Positions 2,771 to 61,436 of a DNA stretch of 64,000 bases are shown here, one piece after another. The stretch lies in NCBI GenBank assembly GCA_964016885.1, contig OZ024749.1, forward strand, positions 248,001 to 312,000, read 5' to 3'. Under the pieces are notes generated by a model. That model saw only the letters and a list, made by a program, of their open reading frames with translations, searched no databases and was not told where the DNA came from. Origin of the DNA: Eledone cirrhosa (Eukaryota). Numbering within the stretch: the first letter of the stretch is position 1; each line of letters opens with the position of its first letter. Position numbers and translations under genes: made by a program.

Positions 2771-2939
2771 CATCATCATCATTTAACGTCCATCTTCCAC
2801 GCTAGCATGGGTTTGGACAGGAATTTTTCCACTTGAGGCAAGATTGGTTGAGCAAGACAACCAATCTTGCCTTAGGTGGGAAAGCTCCCGTCCGGGCCCA
2901 TGCTGGCGTGGAGGATGGACATTGGACGATGATGATGAT
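2771..2939. repeat. Fold-back hairpin of two inverted RTE-A 3' termini; right arm A>G hypermutated
   Basis: 2771-2850 is the reverse complement of 2858-2939. The right arm differs from the RTE 3' consensus mostly by A>G. Confidence 0.9.
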
Positions 2940-2988: not shown

Positions 2989-3911
2989 TGGGCGATAAAA
3001 TCAGCAGTGGGGGAGGGTGCTCTGAAAGTACTGTAGCTAGAGTCAGAACTGGTTGGAAAAAGTTCAGAGAGCTTATACCACTATTAGCTGCTAAAGGGTT
3101 CTCCCTAAAAATGAAAGGCAGGTTGTATGATGCCTGCATATGAACAGCAATGTTGCATGGTAGTGAGACCTGGGCATTGTGTGCAGAGGATATACGCAGA
3201 CTAGAGAGGAACGAAGCTTGCATGCTCCGCTGGATGTGTAACAGTAATATACGTGAACGGCAAAGCATAAACGAACTAAGGAAAAAATTAGAGATAAGAG
3301 GGATCAGATGTTGTTTACTCGAGAGAAGGCTGCGTTGGTATGGACACGTGATGCGCATGAAAGTCGATAGCTGTATAACAAAGTGCAGGGCAATAAAGAT
3401 AGACGGTAGCCAAGGAATAGGCAGACCTAGAAAAACATGGGATGAGCTGATAAACTCCGACCTCACACACTTACACCTCTCCAAGACAATGTCACTGGAC
3501 CGAGACCTTTGGCGGTACTCAGTAACAGAGAAGACCCGCCTTGCCAGTAGGCATCTCTAACAAAATACACCCCGTCCCGCCACCACCCCCACCCCATCCA
3601 CACTACCCCGTTCTAAGTAAAGTTATGTTGGTGCCGCGCCATCCAGGCCGAAACAAATGAGATCGTGTAGGTGTCACGACAAAAAAACACACAGTCCACG
3701 CTGTAATGTGGCCGTGTAGGCAACACGGTAAAAACCTCCCAGACCCACACTGTAAATGTGGTTGGTGTTAGGAAGGGCATCCAACTGTAGAAAACCTGCC
3801 AGACAGTCCTATGCGAGCAAGACAATCACTCTTGCCTCAAGTGGGACTACCCCCGTCCAAACCCATGCAAGCGTGGAACACGGACGTTAAACGTTGATGA
3901 TGATGATGATG
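2989..3911 (+). mobile_element. RTE-A 5'-truncated copy
   Basis: C-terminal RT ORF 3150-3560, 3' UTR and (GAT)n tail, flanked by (TA)n on both sides. Confidence 0.92.
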
Positions 3912-3937: not shown

Positions 3938-4597
3938 AAGGCATAAACGAACTAAGGGAAAAATTAGAAATAAGAGGGATCAGATGTTGTTTACTCGAGA
4001 GAAGACTACGTTGGTATGGTCATGTGATGCGCATGAAAAATGACAGCTGTATAAAAAAGTGCAGGGCAATAAAAATAGACGGTAGCCACGGAGTAGGCAG
4101 ACCCAGAAAAACCTGGGACGACTTGATAAATTCCAACCTTACACCTCTCCAAGACAATGTCACTGGACCGAGATCTTTGGCGCTACACAGTAATACAGAA
4201 GACCCGCCTTACCTAAGTACAAAGTGAAACCTACTATAGTCAGTAGGCATCTCTAAGAAAAATACACCCCCGTCTCACTACCCGCACCCCATCCACACCA
4301 CCTCTTTCAATGTAAAGTTATGTTGGTACCACAACATCCAGTCTGAAACAAATGAGGTCGTGTAGGTGTCACGACAAAAAAACACACAGTCCACACTGTA
4401 ATGTGGCCGTGTAGGTAACACGGTAAAAACCTCCCAGTACACACTGTAAACGTGGTTGTTAGGAAGGGCATCCAGCCGTAGAAAACCCGCCAGACAGTCG
4501 TATGCGAGCAAGACAACCACTCTTGCCTCAAGTGGGAAAACTCCCGTCCAAACCCATGCAAGCGTGGAAGATGGACGTTAAACGATGATGATGATGA
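3938..4597 (+). mobile_element. RTE-A 5'-truncated copy
   Basis: Matches the 3' end of 1-2760; (GAT)n tail; same 5' truncation point as 29277-29956. Confidence 0.92.
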
Positions 4598-4819
4598 TTA
4601 TTATTATTTTCCTAGATAACCATAACTTGTAGTATCCTACATTTTAAAATCTCTATACCTGTCACATTAACTAACGTTTTTCTTACTCACACATTCTCTA
4701 TTGAATTTATTACGTTTTCGCATTATTAGGGTATAAATGTTGAGTTTTCTCTTAGGTTAATCACTACCTTGATTAAATCTTAACCATTTAACATCTCAGG
4801 GTATGTCATGTATCATTAT

Positions 4820-4872: not shown

Positions 4873-4921
4873 TTAATTGATCAAAAGAACATCTATTTTA
4901 TTAATATTTGTATTTTAATAT

Positions 4922-5471
4922 AGGCATACGTCAAGACGGGCGGTCTCAAAAGTGAAACTAATTTTACGATTGTGAATTTGTTCTTTTACACCAGGTCTCA
5001 ATAGTGAAAGTATAATGCAGACACACGCAATTGTATGGATTTCTTAATATATATATATGTGTGGGTGTGTATATATGTGTATAAATGTGTGTGTGTATGT
5101 ATATATATATGTGTTTGTGTCATCATCATCGTTTAACGTCTATCTTCCACGCAGGCATGGGTTTAGACGTATATATATGTTTGTGTATATATGTGTTTGT
5201 GTGTATATATATGTGGCCACATATATATATATATATACAGACACATATATATACGCCTAAACCCATGCTTGCGTGGAAGATAGACGTTAAACGATGATGA
5301 TGACACAAACACATATATATATACACACATATATATATATATTAAGAAATCCATACAATTGCGTGTGTCTGCATTATACTTTCACTATTGAGACCTGTTG
5401 TAAAAAAACAAACAAATTCACAATCGTAAAATTAGTTTCACTTTTGAGACCGCCTGTCTTGACGTATGCCT
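4922..5471. repeat. About 550-bp near-perfect palindrome
   Basis: Arms are reverse complements around GTGGCCAC (5213-5220); each arm contains about 50 bp of RTE 3' terminus. Confidence 0.9.
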
Positions 5472-5494
5472 TTAATATATATATATATATATAT

Positions 5495-5797
5495 ATAAAT
5501 GTAAGTATGCATGTATACGTACATACATATATGTATACAGACGTACAGTAGCATGCACATATATATATATATATACATATATACATACATATGCATACAG
5601 GTACACATACATATATGCACGTATCAGTTTAGCGGCGCTAACGTCGCTTTGTTCGTTTGTAAACAAACTGAACAGCCTGAATTTATGCCATACGGTGTTA
5701 AGGCAACCACGTCACCTTTTTGTTCAACACTGACACAGGAACGATGTACTAGTTTCAAGCTTGTTAGCTATCATCAGCACCGTTTACCCATCTGCCA
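5495..5797 (-). repeat. Inverted partial unit of the 466-bp repeat
   Basis: Reverse complement of about 5836-6138. Confidence 0.92.
5740..5784 (-). ncRNA. Minimal type I hammerhead ribozyme (inverted copy)
   Basis: Reverse complement of the motif at 5849-5893. Confidence 0.75.
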
Positions 5798-5848
5798 TCA
5801 TAAGGAAAGTATATACTTTCGAACGTTCAACTATCTGGCAGATGGGTA

Positions 5849-5893
5849 AACGGTGCTGATGATAGCTAACAAGCTTGAAACTAGTACATCGTT
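5849..5893 (+). ncRNA. Minimal type I hammerhead ribozyme, unit 1
   Basis: AACGGTG-CTGATGA-T-AGCT-AACA-AGCT-T-GAAA-CTAGTA-CATCGTT. 7-bp stem I, palindromic stem III ACTAGT, GTA cleavage triplet. First pair of stem II is U.U. Confidence 0.78.
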
Positions 5894-6314
5894 CCTGTGT
5901 CAGTGTTGAACAAAAAGGTGACGTGGTTGCCTTAACACCGTATGGCATAAATTCAGGCTGTTCAGTTTGTTTACAAACGAACAAAGCGACGTTAGCGCCG
6001 CTAAACTGATACGTGCATATATGTATGTGTACCTGTATGCATATGTATGTATATATGTATATATATATATATATGTGCATGCTACTGTACGTCTGTATAC
6101 ATATATGTATGTACGTATACATGCATACTTACATTTAAGTAAGTGCCATACTAAGAGTGAGAAATGAAATTTCGTTTTCATTTTGTTTCAATTTATCGTT
6201 TTCGGTATGCCTGACCGATTTAACTCACTCAATATGCAAATTAGGCTGCTCAGCCGTTAATTTTCATAAGGAAAGTATATACTTTCGAACGTTCAACTAT
6301 CTGGCAGATGGGTA

Positions 6315-29020: not shown

Positions 29021-29145
29021 CGAATTTTCCCACTTGAGGCAAGATTGGTTGAGCAAGACAACCAATCTTGCCTCGGGTGGGAAAGTTCCTGTCCGGGCCC
29101 ATGCTGGCGTGAAGGATGGACGTTGGACGATGATGATGATGATGA
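29021..29145. repeat. Second copy of the RTE 3'-end hairpin with A>G-hypermutated arm (left arm truncated)
   Basis: Same junction GATTGGTTG-AGCAAGACAACC as 2771-2939. Confidence 0.88.
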
Positions 29146-29150
29146 TATAT

Positions 29151-29187
<37 letters not shown>

Positions 29188-29216
29188 GATATATATATAT
29201 ATAGATATATATATAT

Positions 29217-29266
<50 letters not shown>

Positions 29267-29276
29267 TTATATATAT

Positions 29277-29956
29277 AAAGCATAAACGAACTAAGGGGAA
29301 AATTAGAAATAAGAGGGATCAGATGTTGTTTACTCGAGAAAAGACTACGTTGGTACGGTCACGTGATGCGCATGAAAGATGACAGCTGTATAAAAAAGTG
29401 CAGGGCAATAAAAATAGACGGTAGCCACGGAGTAGGCAGACCCAGAAAAACCTGGGACGACTTGATAAATTCCAACCTCACACACTTACACCTCTCCAAG
29501 ACAATCTCACTGGACCGAGATCTTTGGCGATACACAGTAATACAGAAGATCCGCCTTGCCTAAGTACAAAGTGAAACCTACAGTCAGTAGGCACCTCTAA
29601 CAAAATACACCCCTGTCCCACTACCCCCACCCCATCCACACCACCCCTTCCAATGTAAAGTTATGTTGGTACCACAGCATCCAGTCCGAAACAAATGAGG
29701 TCGTGTAGGTATCACGACAAAGAAACACACAGTCCACGCTGTAATGTGGCCGTGTAGGTAACACTGTAAAAACCTCCCAGCCCCACACTGTAAACGTGGT
29801 TGGTGTTAGGAAGGGCATCCAGCCGTAGAAAACCTGCCAGACAGTCCTATACGAGCAAGACAACCAATCTTGCCTCAAGTGGGAAAATTCCCGTCCAAAC
29901 CCATGCTAGCGTGGAAGATGGACGTTAAACGATGATGATGATGATGATGATGATGA
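29277..29956 (+). mobile_element. RTE-A 5'-truncated copy
   Basis: 3' ORF end, UTR and (GAT)n tail. Confidence 0.92.
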
Positions 29957-42427: not shown

Positions 42428-42980
42428 CACACTGTAAAGTGGTCATGTAGGTGTCACAACAAAAAGTACCCAGTACTCACTGTAAAGTGGTCATGTAGGT
42501 GTCACAACAAGTACCCAGTCCACACAGTAAAGTGGTCATGTAGATGTCACAACAAGTACCCAGTCCACACTGTAAATTGGTCATGTAGGTGTCACAACAA
42601 AAAGTACCCAGTACTCACTGTAAAGTGGTCATGTAAGTGTCAGAACAAGTACCCAGTACTCACTTTAAAGTGGTCATGTAGGTGTCACAACAAGTACCCA
42701 GTACACACTGTAAAGTGGTCATGTAGGTGTCACAACAAGTACGCAGTACACACTGTAAAGTGGTCATGTAGGTGTCACAACAAAAAGTACCCAGTACACA
42801 CCGTAAAGTGGTCATGTAGGTGTTACAAGTACCCAGTACACACTGTAAATGTGGTTGGTGTCAGAAAGGCATCCAGCTGTAGAAATCTAGCTAGAAACAG
42901 TTCTATATGAGCAAGACATGGTCACTTGGCCCAACTTCCCTTTAATGGGACAACCTGTCTAGCATGGAAAGTGGACATTC
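42428..42980 (+). repeat. RTE 3' UTR fragment with about 43-46-bp minisatellite (about 9 units)
   Basis: Repeated CACTGTAAAGTGGTCATGTAGGTGTCACAACAA(AAA)GTACCCAGTA, followed by the RTE 3' UTR end. Confidence 0.85.
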
Positions 42981-51370: not shown

Positions 51371-51613
51371 TGTCACAACAAAAAGTACCCAGTACTCACT
51401 GTAAATGAGGTTGGTGTTAGGTAGGGTATCCAGCTGTAGAAATCAAGCCAGAATCAGTTCTGTATAAAGCAAGACAGGATCACCTGACCTAGCATTGCCC
51501 ACAACAGAACATGACTAACTCATGCTAACATGGAAAAATGGACGTTAAACGGTGGTGATAATGATATATATATATATATGTATATATCATCTGTTCTTAT
51601 AATATGATGGCAC

Positions 51614-53801
51614 ACTTGCCATCACCGACGCTGATAAGAAGGTAGCTTGGAAGTGTCACTATGAAAGGCTTCTAAATGAGGAGAATAATTGGGAGAAAGG
51701 CAGTCTCCCCCATATCGACCCAATAGAGGGACCAGCAGTGTTAGTCGAGGGGAGTATAATAAGTAAGGCAATCAAGGATATGAAGACTGGTAAGGCGGCT
51801 GGGCCTTCGGAAATAGTTGCTGAGATGCTGAAGGCATCTGGCACGTTGGGACACACCATGGTCACCAGCATAGTTAACCAAGTCGTACAGAATGGGGTTG
51901 TTCCGAAGGACTGGCATAGCAGCATCATCGTTAACTGTTATAAGGGTAAAGGAGACGCCCTAGATAGGAGTAACTATAGAGGCATTAAATTAATCGACCA
52001 GGTCATGAAGGTCACGGAAAGAGTAATAGCGCAACTAATCAGAGAGAGAATTGACCTAGATGAAATGCAGTTCGGGTTTGTGTCAGGCAAAAGTACCACA
52101 GACGCTCTTTTCATAGTACGACAACTACAGGAGAAGTACCTAGCTAAAGGTAAACCCCTCTACTTAGCTTTTGTCGACTTGGAGAAAGCCTTCGACAGAG
52201 TCCCCCGCTCCATTATCTGGTGGGCTCTTAGAAAACTAGGCGTTGACGAATGGCTTGTGAGGGCTATACAAGCCATGTATAAAGAAACAGTCAGCAAGGT
52301 TAGAATTAACAACGAATATAGTGAAGAGTTTAGCGTAAAAGTTGGCGTCCATCAGGGCTCTGTTCTCAGTCCACTACTATTTATTATTGCCCTTCAGGCT
52401 ATAACAGAGGAGTTCAAGACAGGCTGCCCATGGGAACTCCTATACGCAGACGACCTGACACTCATAGCGGAATCAATGGCCGAGCTAGAGAAGAAATTCC
52501 AAACATGGAAGCACGGCCTAGAGTCAAAAGGACTTAAAATTAACCTGGCTAAGACCAAAGTACTAGTTTGTAGGAAAGAAAACAAGGCGGCGGTCCCTTC
52601 TGGGAAATGGTCGTGCTCGGTGTGTAGGAAAGGCGTAGGTAGAAACTCCATTTTATGTCCTAAATGCAAAGTATGGGTGCATAAAAGATGTAGTGGGATC
52701 ACAGGTAAGCTAACTAAGAACATAGATTTTACATGTGGCCGGTGCTCTGGTGCAATAAGTAGCAGCAAGTGCCCACAAACTACTAGCTCTTTCAATTGCG
52801 CAGAGGGTTCTATAGAAATAGTGGACAGCTTCCGTTACCTGGGCGATAAAATCAGCAGTGGGGGAGGGTGCTCTGAAAGTACTGTAGCTAGAGTCAGAAC
52901 TGGTTGGAAAAAGTTCAGAGAGCTTATACCACTATTAGCTGCTAAAGGGTTCTCACTAAAAATGAAAGGCAGGTTGTACGATGCCTGCATACGAACAGCA
53001 ATGCTGCATGGCAGTGAGACCTGGGCATTGTGTGCAGAGGATATACGCAGACTAGAGAGGAACGAAGCTTGCATGCTCCGCTGGATGTGTAACAGTAATA
53101 TACGTGAACGGCAAAGCATAAACGAACTAAGGAAAAAATTAGAGATAAGAGGGATCAGATGTTGTTTACTCGAGAGAAGGCTACGTTGGTATGGACACGT
53201 GATGCGCATGAAAGTCGATAGCTGTATAACAAAGTGCAGGGCAATAAAGATAGACGGTAGTCACGGAATAGGCAGACCTAGAAAAACCTGGGACGAGCTG
53301 ATAAACTCCGACATCACACACTTACACCTCTCCAAGACAATGTCACTGGACCGAGACCTTTGGCGGTACTCAGTAACAGAGAAGACCCGCCTTACCTAAA
53401 TATATAGTAAAACCTACTCCAGCCAGTAGGCATCTCTAACAAAATACACCCCGTCCCACCACCACCACCCCCACCCGATCCACACCACCCCGTTCTATGT
53501 AAAGTTATGTTGGTGCCGCGCCATCGAGGCCGAAACAAATGAGATCGTGTAGGTGTCACGACAAAAAAACACACAGTCCACGCTGTAATGTGGCCGTGTA
53601 GGCAACACGGTAAAAACCTCCCAGACCCACACTGTAAATGTGGTTGGTGTTAGGAAGGGCATCCAACTGTAGAAAACCTGCCAGACAGTCCTATGCGAGC
53701 AAGACAATCACTCTTGCCTCAAGTGGGACTACCCCCGTCCAAACCCATGCAAGCGTGGAACACGGACGTTAAACGTTGATGATGATGATGATGATGATGA
53801 T
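51614..53801 (+). mobile_element. RTE-A 5'-truncated copy with intact RT frame
   Basis: ORF 51738-53399 (553 aa) with YADD and PHD-like finger; 3' UTR; (GAT)n tail. Confidence 0.95.
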
Positions 53802-53861: not shown

Positions 53862-54140
53862 CAGGTCACCAGTTGGTGCTACTGGTAACATGTATCCCAG
53901 TACAACCTGTCTCATGGTCGGGTCATTGGCGACTAAACTGGGAACCCCACCAAGGTTTCTTGGTGAGGAGGGTGACTTTGGACATCCTGCAGGACTAAAA
54001 ACAATACCTGTCAAAGGGCAAAAGCGCTCTTAAGAGTCAATGGCCATCCAAAATCACCGGGAGAGATGACCCCTTAGCCTTTGTCAAGGCAGAATTCTAG
54101 GAGAAGGAAAACTCTGATATAACACCTGCAACCCTGATGG
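53862..54140 (+). mobile_element. Probable 5' UTR fragment of an RTE-type LINE
   Basis: CTAGGAGAAGGAAAACTCTGA motif, also on the minus strand at about 62460-62495; structured 5' part. Confidence 0.4.
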
Positions 54141-54655
54141 TATCCAATGATGTTGACTTGTTCTTCTTTTTGGTAAATATCATCTTGGTTAAGAGAGTGG
54201 GACTGGCTTTGTGCAGTGCCTTTGCTCACTATAAAAGCTTCACGGCACAAGCATTGCTTTATATCTGGAGATCTCTCTGCACTTGTTGTCACATGGTACC
54301 ATGGGTCCAGCACTATGTGTCAATAATTGTCACAAGTGTAGTGTTTGTACCAGAGTTTTCAAGTCGCTGGCTGGACTAAAAAGTCACACTCGTTCAGCGC
54401 ATCGATAGGGGTTCTCCTACATGTATATGAAGTAGTGGCCGTACTCGAAAACGAGTTGGCAGCCACCATATGTATATATAGACATATGTATATATAAATA
54501 TATGTAAGAATATTTTCGAAACAGCGAGTGGGTTTGAAATTATTAGAAATGTAAGCTATCGCCGTATTTTGACTAAAGAAATTAAAGAAATTATTTAGCC
54601 TGATAGTGGAGTTAAGAACCCTCGGAGAAATGGAAAAAGATGAGTATTGACATAC

Positions 54656-56932: not shown

Positions 56933-58520
56933 TATCATCATCACCGTTTTACGTCCGTTCTTCCACGCTAGCATGGGTTAGACGGGTTGTCCTGTTGTGG
57001 GCAGTGTCTGGTCAGCTGACCATGCCTTGCTCATACAGGAACTGATTTGGCTTGATTTCTACAGCTGGATGCCCTTCCTAACACCAACCTCATTTACAGT
57101 GAGTGCTGGGTGCTTTTTCGTGGCGCCTACACATCTACTTTACAGTGTGGGCTGGGTGCTTTTTTGTCGTGGCACCTCCACGACCACCTTGCGGGGGGGG
57201 GGGGGGGGGGGGCATATTGTCTATATGCTTCAGCTTGTACCCATGGGAGGTCGGGTACTCTGTATTACTGTGTGATGCCAGAAGTCACGGTCGTGTGTCA
57301 TTGCCTTTGAGAGGTGTAATTGGGTAAGGTCGGCTTTTATCACCTCATCCCAGGTCATCTTGGGTCTCCCCACTCCGCGGTTTCCATCAACTTCTAGTGC
57401 TCTGCACCTTTTTATGCAGCTGTCATCCTTCATACGCATCACATGTCCATACCAGCGCAACCGCCTCTCCTGCACACAGCATTTGATTCCTCTTATGCTC
57501 AGTCTCTCTCTCAATTCATTTATGCTTTGTCGTTCACGTATATTACTGTTACACATCCATCGGAGCATGCAGGCTTCGTTTCTCTCTAATCTACGTAAGT
57601 CTTCCACCTTCAGCGCCCAGGTCTCACTACCATGCAACATTGCTGTTCGGATACACGCATCATACAGTCTGCCTTTCATTCTGAGGGAGAAGCCTTTTGC
57701 AGCTAGCAGTGGTAGTAGTTCCCTAAACTTCTTCCATCCCGTTCTTACCCTAGTTATTGTACTTTCTGAACACCCACCTCCGCTGCTAATTCGGTCACCT
57801 AGGTAGCAGAAGCTGTCTACTGTTTCTACAGAGCCCTCCCAGAGATTGGTGGTACTTGTTTCCTGTGGCTGTTTGCTGCTTGCTGTCTCAGCACAGCTGC
57901 TGCATCTGAAGCCTACATTCTTAATTAAGCTTCCTGAGATCCAACTACATCTCTTGTGTACCCATTGTTTGCATTTGGGGCAGAGAATGGAGTTCCTACC
58001 TACACCTTTCCTACATACTGAGCAAGGCCATTTCCCCGAGGGGATCTGGGTTCTGTTTTCTCGTTTACTTACAAGGACCTTAGTCTTTGTCATGTTGACT
58101 TTGAGACCCTTTCTTTCTAGTCCCTGCTTCCAAGTTTGGAATTTATTCTCTAGTTCTACCATAGATTCAGCTATGAGTGCGAGGTCATCAGCATACAGGA
58201 GTTCCCATGGGCATCCGGTCTTAAACTCCGTTATTGCCTGCAGGACTATGATGAACAGGAGGGGGCTAAGAACTGAGCCCTGGTGGACCCCAACCTGTAT
58301 GCTAAATTCCTCGCTATACTCATTGCTAATCCTAACTTTGCTGACTGCTCCCCTATACATGGCTTGTACCGCTTTCACAAGCCATTCATCTAACCCTAGT
58401 TTTCTAAGAGCCCACCAGATTACAGCACGTGGAACTCTGTCAAAGGCTTTCTCAAGGTCAACAAATGCCAAGTAGAGTGGCTTACTTTTAGCTAGGTACT
58501 TTTCCTGTAATTGCTTCACA
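56933..58520 (-). mobile_element. RTE subfamily C, 5'-truncated
   Basis: ORF 57230-58519 (429 aa) and its own 3' UTR. Confidence 0.93.
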
Positions 58521-58602: not shown

Positions 58603-59463
58603 TGTGCAGAGGATATACGCAGACTGGAGAGAAACGAAGCTTGCATGCTCCGCTGGATGTGTAATAGTAATATACGTGAACGGCAAAGCATAAACGAACT
58701 AAGGGAGAAATTAGGAATAAGAGGGATCAGATGTTGTTTACATGAAAGACAACAGCTGTATAAAAATGTGCAGGGCGATAAAAATAGATGGTAGCCACGG
58801 AGTAGGCAAACCCAGAAAAACCTGGGACGACTTGATAAATTCCGACCTCACACACTTACACCTCTCCAAGACAATGTCACTGGACCGAGATCTTTGGCGC
58901 TACACAGTTATACAGAAGACCCGCCTTGCCTAAGTACAAAGCGAAACCTACAGTTAGTAGGCACCTCTAACAAAATACACCCGCATCCCACTACCTCCAT
59001 CCCATCCACACCACCCCCTTAAATGTGAAGTTATGTTGGTACCATAACATCCAGTCCGAAACAAATGAGGTTGTGTAGGTGTCACGACAAAAAAACACAC
59101 AGCCCACGCTGTAATGTGGCCGTGTAGGTAACACGGTAAAAACCTCCCAGTACACACTGTAAACGTGGTTGGTGTTGGGAAGGGCACCCAGCCGTAGAAA
59201 ACCCGCCAGACGTGTAGGTGTCACGACAATAAAACACACAGTCCACGCTGTAATATGGCCGTGTAGTTAACACGGTAAAAACCTCCCAGTCCATACTGTA
59301 AACGTGGTTGGTGTTAGGAAGGGCATCCAACCGTAGAAAACCCGCCAGACAGTCCTGAGCAAGACAATCAATCTTGCCTCAAGTGGGACAATTCCCGTCC
59401 AGACCCATGCTAGTGTGGAAAATGGACGTTAAACGATGATGATGATGATGATGATGATGATGA
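58603..59463 (+). mobile_element. RTE-A 3' fragment with internal 3' UTR duplication
   Basis: About 59073-59210 is repeated at about 59212-59350; (GAT)n tail. Confidence 0.9.
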
Positions 59464-60539: not shown

Positions 60540-61436
60540 CGAGAGAGAGAGAGACTAGGCATAAGAGGAATCAGATGTAGTGTGTAGGAGAGGAGACTGT
60601 GTTGGTAAAGACATGTGATGTGTATGGATGAACTGAGAGAGAAACTAGATATAAGAGGAATCAGATGTAGTGTGTAGGAGAAGAGACTGTGTTGGTAAAG
60701 ACATGTGATGTGTATGGATGAACTGAGAGAGAAACTAGGTATAAGAGGAATCAGATGTAGTGTGTAGGAGAGGAGACTGTGTTGGTATAGACATGTGATG
60801 TGTATGGATGAACTGAGAGAGAAACTTGATATAAGAGGAATCAGATGTAGTGTGTAGGAGAGGAGACTGTGTTGGTATAGACATGTGATGCGTATGGATG
60901 AACTGAAAGAGAAACTAGGTCTAAGGGGAATCAGATGTAGTGTGTAAGAGAGGAGACTGTGTTGGTATAGACATGTGATGTGTATGGATGAACTGAGAGA
61001 GAAACTAGGTCTAAGGGGAATCAGATGTAGTGTGTAGGAGAGGAGACTGTGTTGGTATAGACATGTGATGTGTATGGATGAACTGAGAGAGAAACTAGAT
61101 ATAAGAGGAATCAGATGTAGTGTGTAGGAGAGGAGACTGTGTTGGTAAAGACATGTGATGCGTATGAATGAACTGAGAGAGAAACTAGGTCTAAGGGGAA
61201 TCAGATGTAGTGTGTAGGAGAGGAGACTGTTGGTATAGACATGCGATGTGTATGGATGAACTGAGAGAGAAACTAGGTCTAAGGGGAATCAGATGTAGTG
61301 TGTAGGACAGGAGACTGTGTTGGTATAGACATGTGATGTGTATGGATGAACTGAGAGAGAAACTAGGTATAAGAGGGATCAGATGTAGTGTGTAGGAGAG
61401 GAGACTGTGTTAGTATAGACATGTGATGTGGATGAA
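60540..61436 (+). repeat. 90-bp minisatellite (about 10 units) derived from RTE coding sequence
   Basis: AACTGAGAGA recurs at 60631, 60721, 60811 and onward; the unit corresponds to ELREKLGIRGIRCSV.ERRL.WY.HVM.MD. Confidence 0.92.

Follow-up and report, generated by a model that had tools for sequence, protein, structure and literature searches.

A>G-hypermutated LINE copies in the Eledone cirrhosa genome with the probable imprint of ADAR-edited RNA

We analyzed a 64,000-nt stretch of the Eledone cirrhosa genome (assembly GCA_964016885.1, contig OZ024749.1; G000:C9:248001-312000), hereafter the window, from an assembly of 3.0 Gb. Near its start lies a hairpin built from two 3' ends of a long interspersed nuclear element (LINE), one arm of which is densely changed from A to G. 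The pattern of these changes, and of similar ones elsewhere in the genome, makes it likely that double-stranded RNA was edited by an ADAR and then written into germline DNA by a LINE reverse transcriptase, for which inosine would count as G. An initial annotation of this DNA had proposed ADAR-type RNA editing followed by reverse transcription and integration; that proposal has withstood every test applied here and extends to 14 more loci.

The fold-back occupies 2760-2948, with arms of 91 nt each (2760-2850 and 2858-2948) separated by a 7-nt loop (2851-2857, + strand). As RNA it folds at -143.2 kcal/mol (z -21.7). The left arm (2760-2850, - strand) is a plain, unedited LINE 3' end with its short-repeat tail in antisense orientation, and has 3 differences from the reference, none of them A>G on the + strand. 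The LINE 3' end of the right arm (2850-2939, + strand) was compared with the plain copy at 29853-29940, which is identical to the majority base of 27 plain genomic copies chosen by likeness to the edited arm. The two differ at 12 of 88 sites, of which 9 are A>G (2875, 2884, 2894-2896, 2905, 2913, 2924 and 2925) and 3 are other changes (2873 C>T, 2885 T>C and 2921 G>A), exactly the nine positions and roughly three additional changes reported in the initial annotation. The chance of 9 A>G among 29 A is 3e-10 to 8e-6 at per-A rates of 1.5-5%, and the A>G share of 9/12 contrasts with a window background share of 0.10 (p=2e-7). All 9 GA sites of the right arm are unaltered. With both window copies of the arm combined (see below), A>G was found at 2/2 adenines after T, 6/12 after A, 2/6 after C and 0/9 after G, or 0/9 after G versus 10/20 for other adenines (Fisher p=0.011), bearing out the earlier remark that no changed A has a 5' G and that GA is kept. 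The arms differ in this respect: of non-GA adenines on the + strand, 0/15 are changed in the left arm and 9/18 in the right stem (p=0.0014), and p=0.036 when only adenines preceded by A or T are compared. This asymmetry is genuine. A>G (154) and T>C (175) are in balance over the 29,976 repeat positions scanned in the window, which show clusters only in the 2850-2939 arm, in the second copy of that arm and at 58301-58390. At the last of these, an apparent T>C cluster disappears against its nearest relatives and was set aside as a subfamily difference.

The edited arm exists twice. A second copy at 29022-29140, absent from the initial annotation, has an identical hairpin junction (29052-29058), and both the junction and the G-rich motif have two matches each in the 3.0-Gb genome. 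Sequence comparison places its unedited left arm, trimmed to 30 nt, at 29022-29051 (- strand) and its right arm at 29051-29140 (+ strand), where 10 A>G are found, 9 in common with 2850-2939. The two copies share these 9 Gs under different flanks and with ordinary changes between them. Each is followed by a TA array (a TA-rich array after the tail at 2940-2988 and, by repeat analysis, an (AT)n array at 29145-29277) and then, next or one element later, by a plain LINE piece with an equal 5' cut. Behind the first hairpin a plain 5'-truncated LINE copy (2989-3910, + strand) precedes this piece (3941-4600, + strand), which shares its 5' cut and preceding TA end with the plain LINE 3' piece that ends the second unit (29279-29945, + strand; 93% identity). 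The latter contains the 3' end used as reference in the initial annotation. Among the full-length matches listed, these two pieces alone have that 5' cut, and the 3941-4600 piece likely belongs to the duplicated unit. Thus, the shared TA array and LINE piece suggest one edited ancestor duplicated once, so the duplicated unit would end at the LINE tail with its 5' side cut.

Read support was obtained for the second copy. Contig 8 of run X1 (115 nt, depth 10.9) spans 2829-2920 with 5 letters different, and has G at 2884 and T at 2885. In that span exactly 5 sites, 2885 included, separate copy 2 from copy 1, so by these counts the contig should represent copy 2 and carry its Gs. These Gs are thus found outside the assembly as well, although the X1 library is not on record and is possibly the assembled sample. 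Absence of the Gs from DNA reads, the outcome that the initial annotation named as fatal, thus appears not to hold for copy 2, within the same limit on the library. Among the matches listed, no run contig spans the edited arm of copy 1. Restriction-site-associated DNA sequencing (RAD-seq) runs gave near-zero coverage of both loci examined, and read matching at 90% likeness to the hairpin was swamped by plain copies.

The window hairpin belongs to a wider class. The plain motif of the LINE group has 51,824 copies genome-wide versus 2 junction matches. A query with the edited arm found an independent copy, L023, and of the 10 matches to a pattern requiring a pair of A>G changes in the 3' end, 8 were clearly hypermutated, the window arm included; the match L071 was not hypermutated. 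A second motif returned 17 matches, 11 of which were not hypermutated under a strict rule, and an edited query then added L123, L124, L130 and L131. One of those 11, L082, was taken as edited because over its full length it has 35 A>G versus 7 C>T; L074 (4/16 A in 48 nt) and L096 are borderline and were excluded. This yields 14 further hypermutated loci on 12 contigs (L023, L070, L072, L073, L076, L077, L078, L079, L082, L098, L123, L124, L130 and L131), or 16 chromosomal loci of different ages with the window copies counted. The older copies L073, L023 and L131 bear ordinary substitutions on top of A>G. The number of plain copies makes the class rare: at one motif, 6-8 hypermutated matches versus 51,824 plain correspond to at least 1 in 10,000, a lower bound.

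Pooled over 5,621 nt, 13 sense-strand loci have A>G at 604 of 1,754 A, with 10 T>C, 14 G>A, 34 C>T and 64 transversions, counts that describe the class and not its frequency. A>T (7) and A>C (10) are few, and in the most altered locus, L070, 74 of 93 A are changed with a single other difference. The abundant subfamily with balanced substitutions that the initial annotation had considered is thus at odds with both the 2 matches among 51,824 and the 604 A>G versus 10, 14 and 34. By 5' neighbor, the pooled rate is 0.52 for T, 0.46 for A, 0.27 for C and 0.12 for G (39/329); the 5'-G depletion of the window arm (0/9) recurs across these 13 loci, as expected of the ADAR-like bias first noted in the hairpin. 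By 3' neighbor, it is 0.45 for G, 0.38 for A and 0.28 for both C and T. These rates fit the pattern of invertebrate ADAR hyper-editing given in passages of PMC5625713, in which upstream G is depleted and downstream G weakly preferred. Under one rule applied outside the motif, 6/17 A>G matches were hypermutated, versus 1/3 for T>C and 0/30 for a G>A control (30 examined of 47). A first antisense control gave 0 matches, and covers one subfamily with little weight; an antisense-edited query revealed no second antisense-edited copy among 40 scored of 2,096 candidates. Directly upstream of the edited LINE in L023, a sequence of about 490 nt is duplicated in tandem (L023:1-818; G000:C21, about 33108860-33109760), its units having mostly A/G differences (14 and 15 versus 2 T>C) and no matches in other searched sequence. 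Both tandem units are likely edited passengers, judging by these differences.

Several loci carry signs that the change happened in RNA. L076, L077 and L079 (contigs C13, C22 and C403) are one composite with different 5' cuts and different sets of Gs, compared among the matches listed. In order, it comprises a piece of E2, an element like a short interspersed nuclear element (SINE), a TA array, palindromic elements (missing in L076), a LINE 3' piece, a TA array and a second E2. Private Gs in the LINE piece number 24 versus 0, 13 versus 1 and 9 versus 4 in the three pairings, and the downstream E2 shows 0-1 A>G differences within the trio. If G is treated as A, a 450-nt TA array of L076 aligns with that of L079 free of gaps and mismatches; the two have 64 Gs in common, and 32 and 17 are private to L076 and L079, respectively. 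Such alternating arrays are easy to align, but in this case the lengths agree and the internal anchors keep register. In the palindrome of L077 and L079, both arms are altered on the same strand and the unpaired continuation is spared. In L098, an antisense LINE arm with 37 A>G is followed by a sense copy in which changes begin where pairing starts and end after about 80 nt; the loop is plain, as is almost the whole of the final 430 nt. Changes are thus confined to self-pairing sequence, on both arms of one strand, in the L077/L079 palindromes and partly so in L098, whereas the left arm of the window hairpin is plain. An inverted partner within about 1.5 kb is no commoner near edited copies (2/14) than near plain ones (8/64), which indicates that editing was independent of the present site. 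A later, unedited element splits the edited block of L077, which, like the ordinary substitutions on the older copies, speaks for Gs that reside in the DNA. TA arrays of up to several kb surround L070, L072, L076, L077 and L079, interrupted almost only by G on one strand (291 G and 0 C in 1,582 nt of one example); between shared anchors they differ by A/G only. More periodic TA arrays after E2 tails may reflect tail slippage.

The insertion form of these copies resembles that of retrotransposons. Window copy 2, L123, L130, L078 and the L076/L077/L079 trio combine 5' truncation with a 3' end at the repeat tail, a trait of target-primed retro-insertion. E2 (600 nt; window copy at 53864-54464, + strand, by sequence comparison) has an AT/ATGT-type tail, is unedited and often stands directly downstream of edited LINE pieces (L072, L076-L079, L124 and L131). 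A same-strand downstream E2 was found for 7/14 edited copies (5/12 with the trio counted once) versus 0/64 plain copies (p=4e-5, trio once). In several edited copies lacking E2 (L123, L130 and L098) the last 90-200 nt are plain, and a plain LINE lies downstream of the window hairpin, where the 3941-4600 piece is a possible helper 3' end. We infer that priming needs an intact 3' end, the copy's own or a helper's. This is a tendency and not a rule: the ends of L023 and L073 are edited, yet neither has a helper within 1.5 kb.

LINE 3' ends recur as head-to-head fold-back insertions, with 52 matches genome-wide; in many, the arms are identical and are separated by a loop of 4-15 nt or by a TA spacer. 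Of 50 fold-backs examined, the window's is the only one with an A>G-rich RTE arm, the 49 others lacking one; L172 had seemed A>G-rich, and its RTE arms are identical, the signal coming from TA arrays out of register. Since identical-arm fold-backs are common and these 49 are free of A>G, the hairpin more likely predates editing. Furthermore, had complementary DNA (cDNA) of edited RNA snapped back on itself, the left arm would show the edits in mirror image; it does not, which again makes it likely that the hairpin came first. Other palindromes are edited on both arms, which favors one of two events as the source of the one-arm pattern: the reverse transcriptase may have moved at the loop from the edited RNA to an unedited template, or cDNA made on the edited transcript of this locus may have replaced the right arm where it stood. 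Template switches would produce mosaic arms such as those of L098. Editing of the entire hairpin RNA on one side only is a possible and somewhat less likely source. The mechanism hinted at in the initial annotation, an edited RNA inserted against an unedited antisense copy, seems unlikely in view of the probable age of the hairpin and the 49 fold-backs without A>G. One-arm editing as a finding of long-read studies has no backing in the passages of PMC10360234 and is set aside.

The order of events at the window locus might then be as follows. A fold-back insertion with two plain arms would have formed first, and its read-through transcript would have folded and been edited. Reverse transcription would have been primed at a repeat tail, either the arm's own or that at the intact 3' end of the downstream plain LINE. 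The enzyme would have switched at the loop from the edited RNA to an unedited template, or the cDNA would have replaced the right arm alone. The hairpin-TA-LINE unit would later have been copied to 29022-29945, with its 5' cut in the left arm.

A number of observations weigh against editing and reverse transcription as the source of these copies. The part played by ADAR is likely, as read from the sequence pattern. The loci were found with A>G-selecting patterns and queries, and the single-motif strand ratio of 6:1 (4:1 by source) is not significant by itself. Decay of newly made CpG, at 5/136 versus 23/1,162, shows no significant difference (p=0.2). Target-site duplications were not established by eye, most inserts lying in TA arrays, which mask them. 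In the window, editing spares the left arm, unlike in palindromes elsewhere that carry edits on both arms, and the junction search found no unedited source hairpin in the assembly. Lastly, at L078, the outside locus chosen for a read check, the edited segment is mostly uncovered in runs X1 and X3 at 97%, X3 covering the flank with one difference; none of four runs bridges the locus, and holes in such coverage prove nothing. L078 may occur only in the assembled animal, may have been removed by filtering or may be spurious. Run X4, of a kind not on record, contributed 103 short contigs at least 97% like L078, many in edited parts and none in the flank, compared with 2 in X1 and 9 in X3. The X4 contigs look like a pool of edited RNAs.

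Deamination of DNA in place would have nascent RNA from the left arm pair with the displaced + strand of the right arm, an ADAR then deaminating the DNA of the hybrid. This would account for the one-arm pattern and the missing unedited source; in L070, too, a heavily changed copy has a plain inverted one on its upstream side, and ADARs are able to edit DNA in DNA:RNA model substrates (PMC12925331). Deamination in place is nonetheless improbable, for 12/14 edited copies have no nearby inverted partner, much like plain copies. The L077 and L079 palindromes are altered on both arms, the upstream arm of L098 is the more changed, three dispersed copies of one composite vary in G set and 5' cut, and the 49 other fold-backs are unchanged in their RTE arms.

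Misincorporation by a reverse transcriptase or repair polymerase opposite template A or T, with no deaminase involved, has even less to recommend it. Such changes could stem from skewed nucleotide pools or from errors of the polymerase-eta type that follow A or T, and the preference for 5' A and T and the location in retrotransposed sequence are as such errors would have it. However, 5' C is well used (0.27), A>T and A>C together are dwarfed by A>G, and L070 changed 74 of 93 A with one other substitution. Moreover, changes in a single insertion fall in paired segments and not in unpaired parts or E2, a distinction unexpected of polymerase error.

A sequencing, polishing or assembly artefact in hairpin or TA-rich DNA, or RNA-derived reads in the assembly, is as improbable as misincorporation. 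The unseen edited part of L078 in X1 and X3 contigs would suit it, as would the youngest loci, which are almost without other substitutions and lie beside long TA arrays; mismatch clusters can be artefacts, in the passages of PMC2873906 of the G>A type. Against it, copy 2 is matched by a run contig, and its partner arm is only 30 nt, yet Gs occur across the 90-nt arm. Nor would an artefact place 9 common Gs in two copies with different flanks and ordinary differences, let a later plain insertion split the edited block of L077 or leave 49 other fold-backs clean. An ordinary G-rich subfamily, or the selection for G.U pairs that the initial annotation offered as its alternative, can be dismissed even though two window copies share 9 Gs and all 9 right-arm changes give G.U wobble pairs: motif and junction have 2 matches each against 51,824 plain copies and other loci have other G sets, and the changes weaken the fold (-143.2 versus -157.8 kcal/mol without them), C>T, which also gives wobble pairs, is not enriched and 12/14 edited copies have no inverted partner within about 1.5 kb.

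Elsewhere in the window, a young copy of the LINE family, itself 5'-truncated, holds a 598-aa open frame (51603-53399, + strand) with matches to reverse transcriptase (PF00078, E=1.8e-32) and, directly after that domain, a PHD finger (PF00628, E=2.8e-5; score 24.5 versus a cut-off of 24). The family is provisionally called RTE, after the label of the initial annotation. Two inverted duplications lie at 4889-5502 and 5496-6137, the first containing 50-nt LINE 3' ends at 5120-5169 and 5259-5303; the window scan showed no A>G cluster in either. LINE fragments also form tandem arrays at 59073-59350, 60545-61434 and 42428-42855, with units of 139, 90 and 45 nt, and L094 is a long array of the 139-nt unit.

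Precedents exist for parts of this picture. ADAR-type hyperedited avian retroviruses (Rous-associated virus U3 and an avian leukosis virus inverted repeat) likewise show A>G at nearly half of adenines in an inverted repeat of a reverse-transcribed element (PMC12925331). Those are single cases, whereas the copies described here are of an element lacking long terminal repeats (non-LTR), number 16 loci of one genome with various ages and include non-LINE passengers such as palindromes and TA arrays. APOBEC DNA-edited LTR retrotransposons of vertebrates also have strand-biased, one-type deaminase clusters fixed in genomic copies and detected by copy comparison (PMC4866542). Their changes are sense-strand G>A, made on cDNA of LTR elements; ours are A>G in self-pairing, LINE-mobilized sequence. 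The APOBEC signature is lacking here, given A>G in a non-LTR element and the G>A control of 0/30, and the same source, in the passages concerned, reports APOBEC editing as absent from 19 invertebrate genomes in a screen aimed at LTRs. Closest in pattern is metazoan A-to-I hyper-editing of repeat RNA, with dense A>G clusters, depleted upstream G, a weak downstream-G preference and repeat or hairpin substrates, which is described as exceptionally high in octopus (PMC5625713, PMC9068888). There, the clusters are RNA-versus-DNA mismatches, whereas here the pattern sits in the assembly. By description only, the LINE resembles octopus RTE-clade elements such as RTE-2_OV, with reverse transcriptase, a short-repeat tail and recent activity; the RTE-2_OV passages of PMC9115989 mention no edited genomic copies. 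A full-text literature search, with subscription papers mostly outside it and absence thus unproven, found no report of ADAR-type clusters fixed in genomic LINE copies. Collectively, these comparisons place the window hairpin as a sample of a genome-wide class of probably deaminase-edited retroelements, the A>G, non-LTR counterpart of APOBEC-edited LTR elements.

The role of A-to-I editing against retrotransposons in heavily editing animals has been called unexplored, in the part of PMC9068888 that treats it. If our reading is true, a modification normally treated as non-heritable becomes heritable, with tens of mutations made in one step. Genomic copies with edits would show ADAR meeting retrotransposon RNA in the germline, and would preserve single edited molecules of different ages. 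They can also pass for RNA editing when RNA reads are mapped. The downstream helper link (7/14 versus 0/64) hints that editing of a LINE 3' end blocks its own mobilization, a question testable from assemblies alone. More tentatively, ADAR editing may be a standing germline mutagen in this lineage. LINE reverse transcriptases would routinely write back hyper-edited transcripts with hairpin and (TA)n passengers, often using the 3' end of a downstream SINE where that of the LINE itself is edited, leaving a datable fossil record of germline RNA editing and helping to build G-interrupted TA microsatellites.
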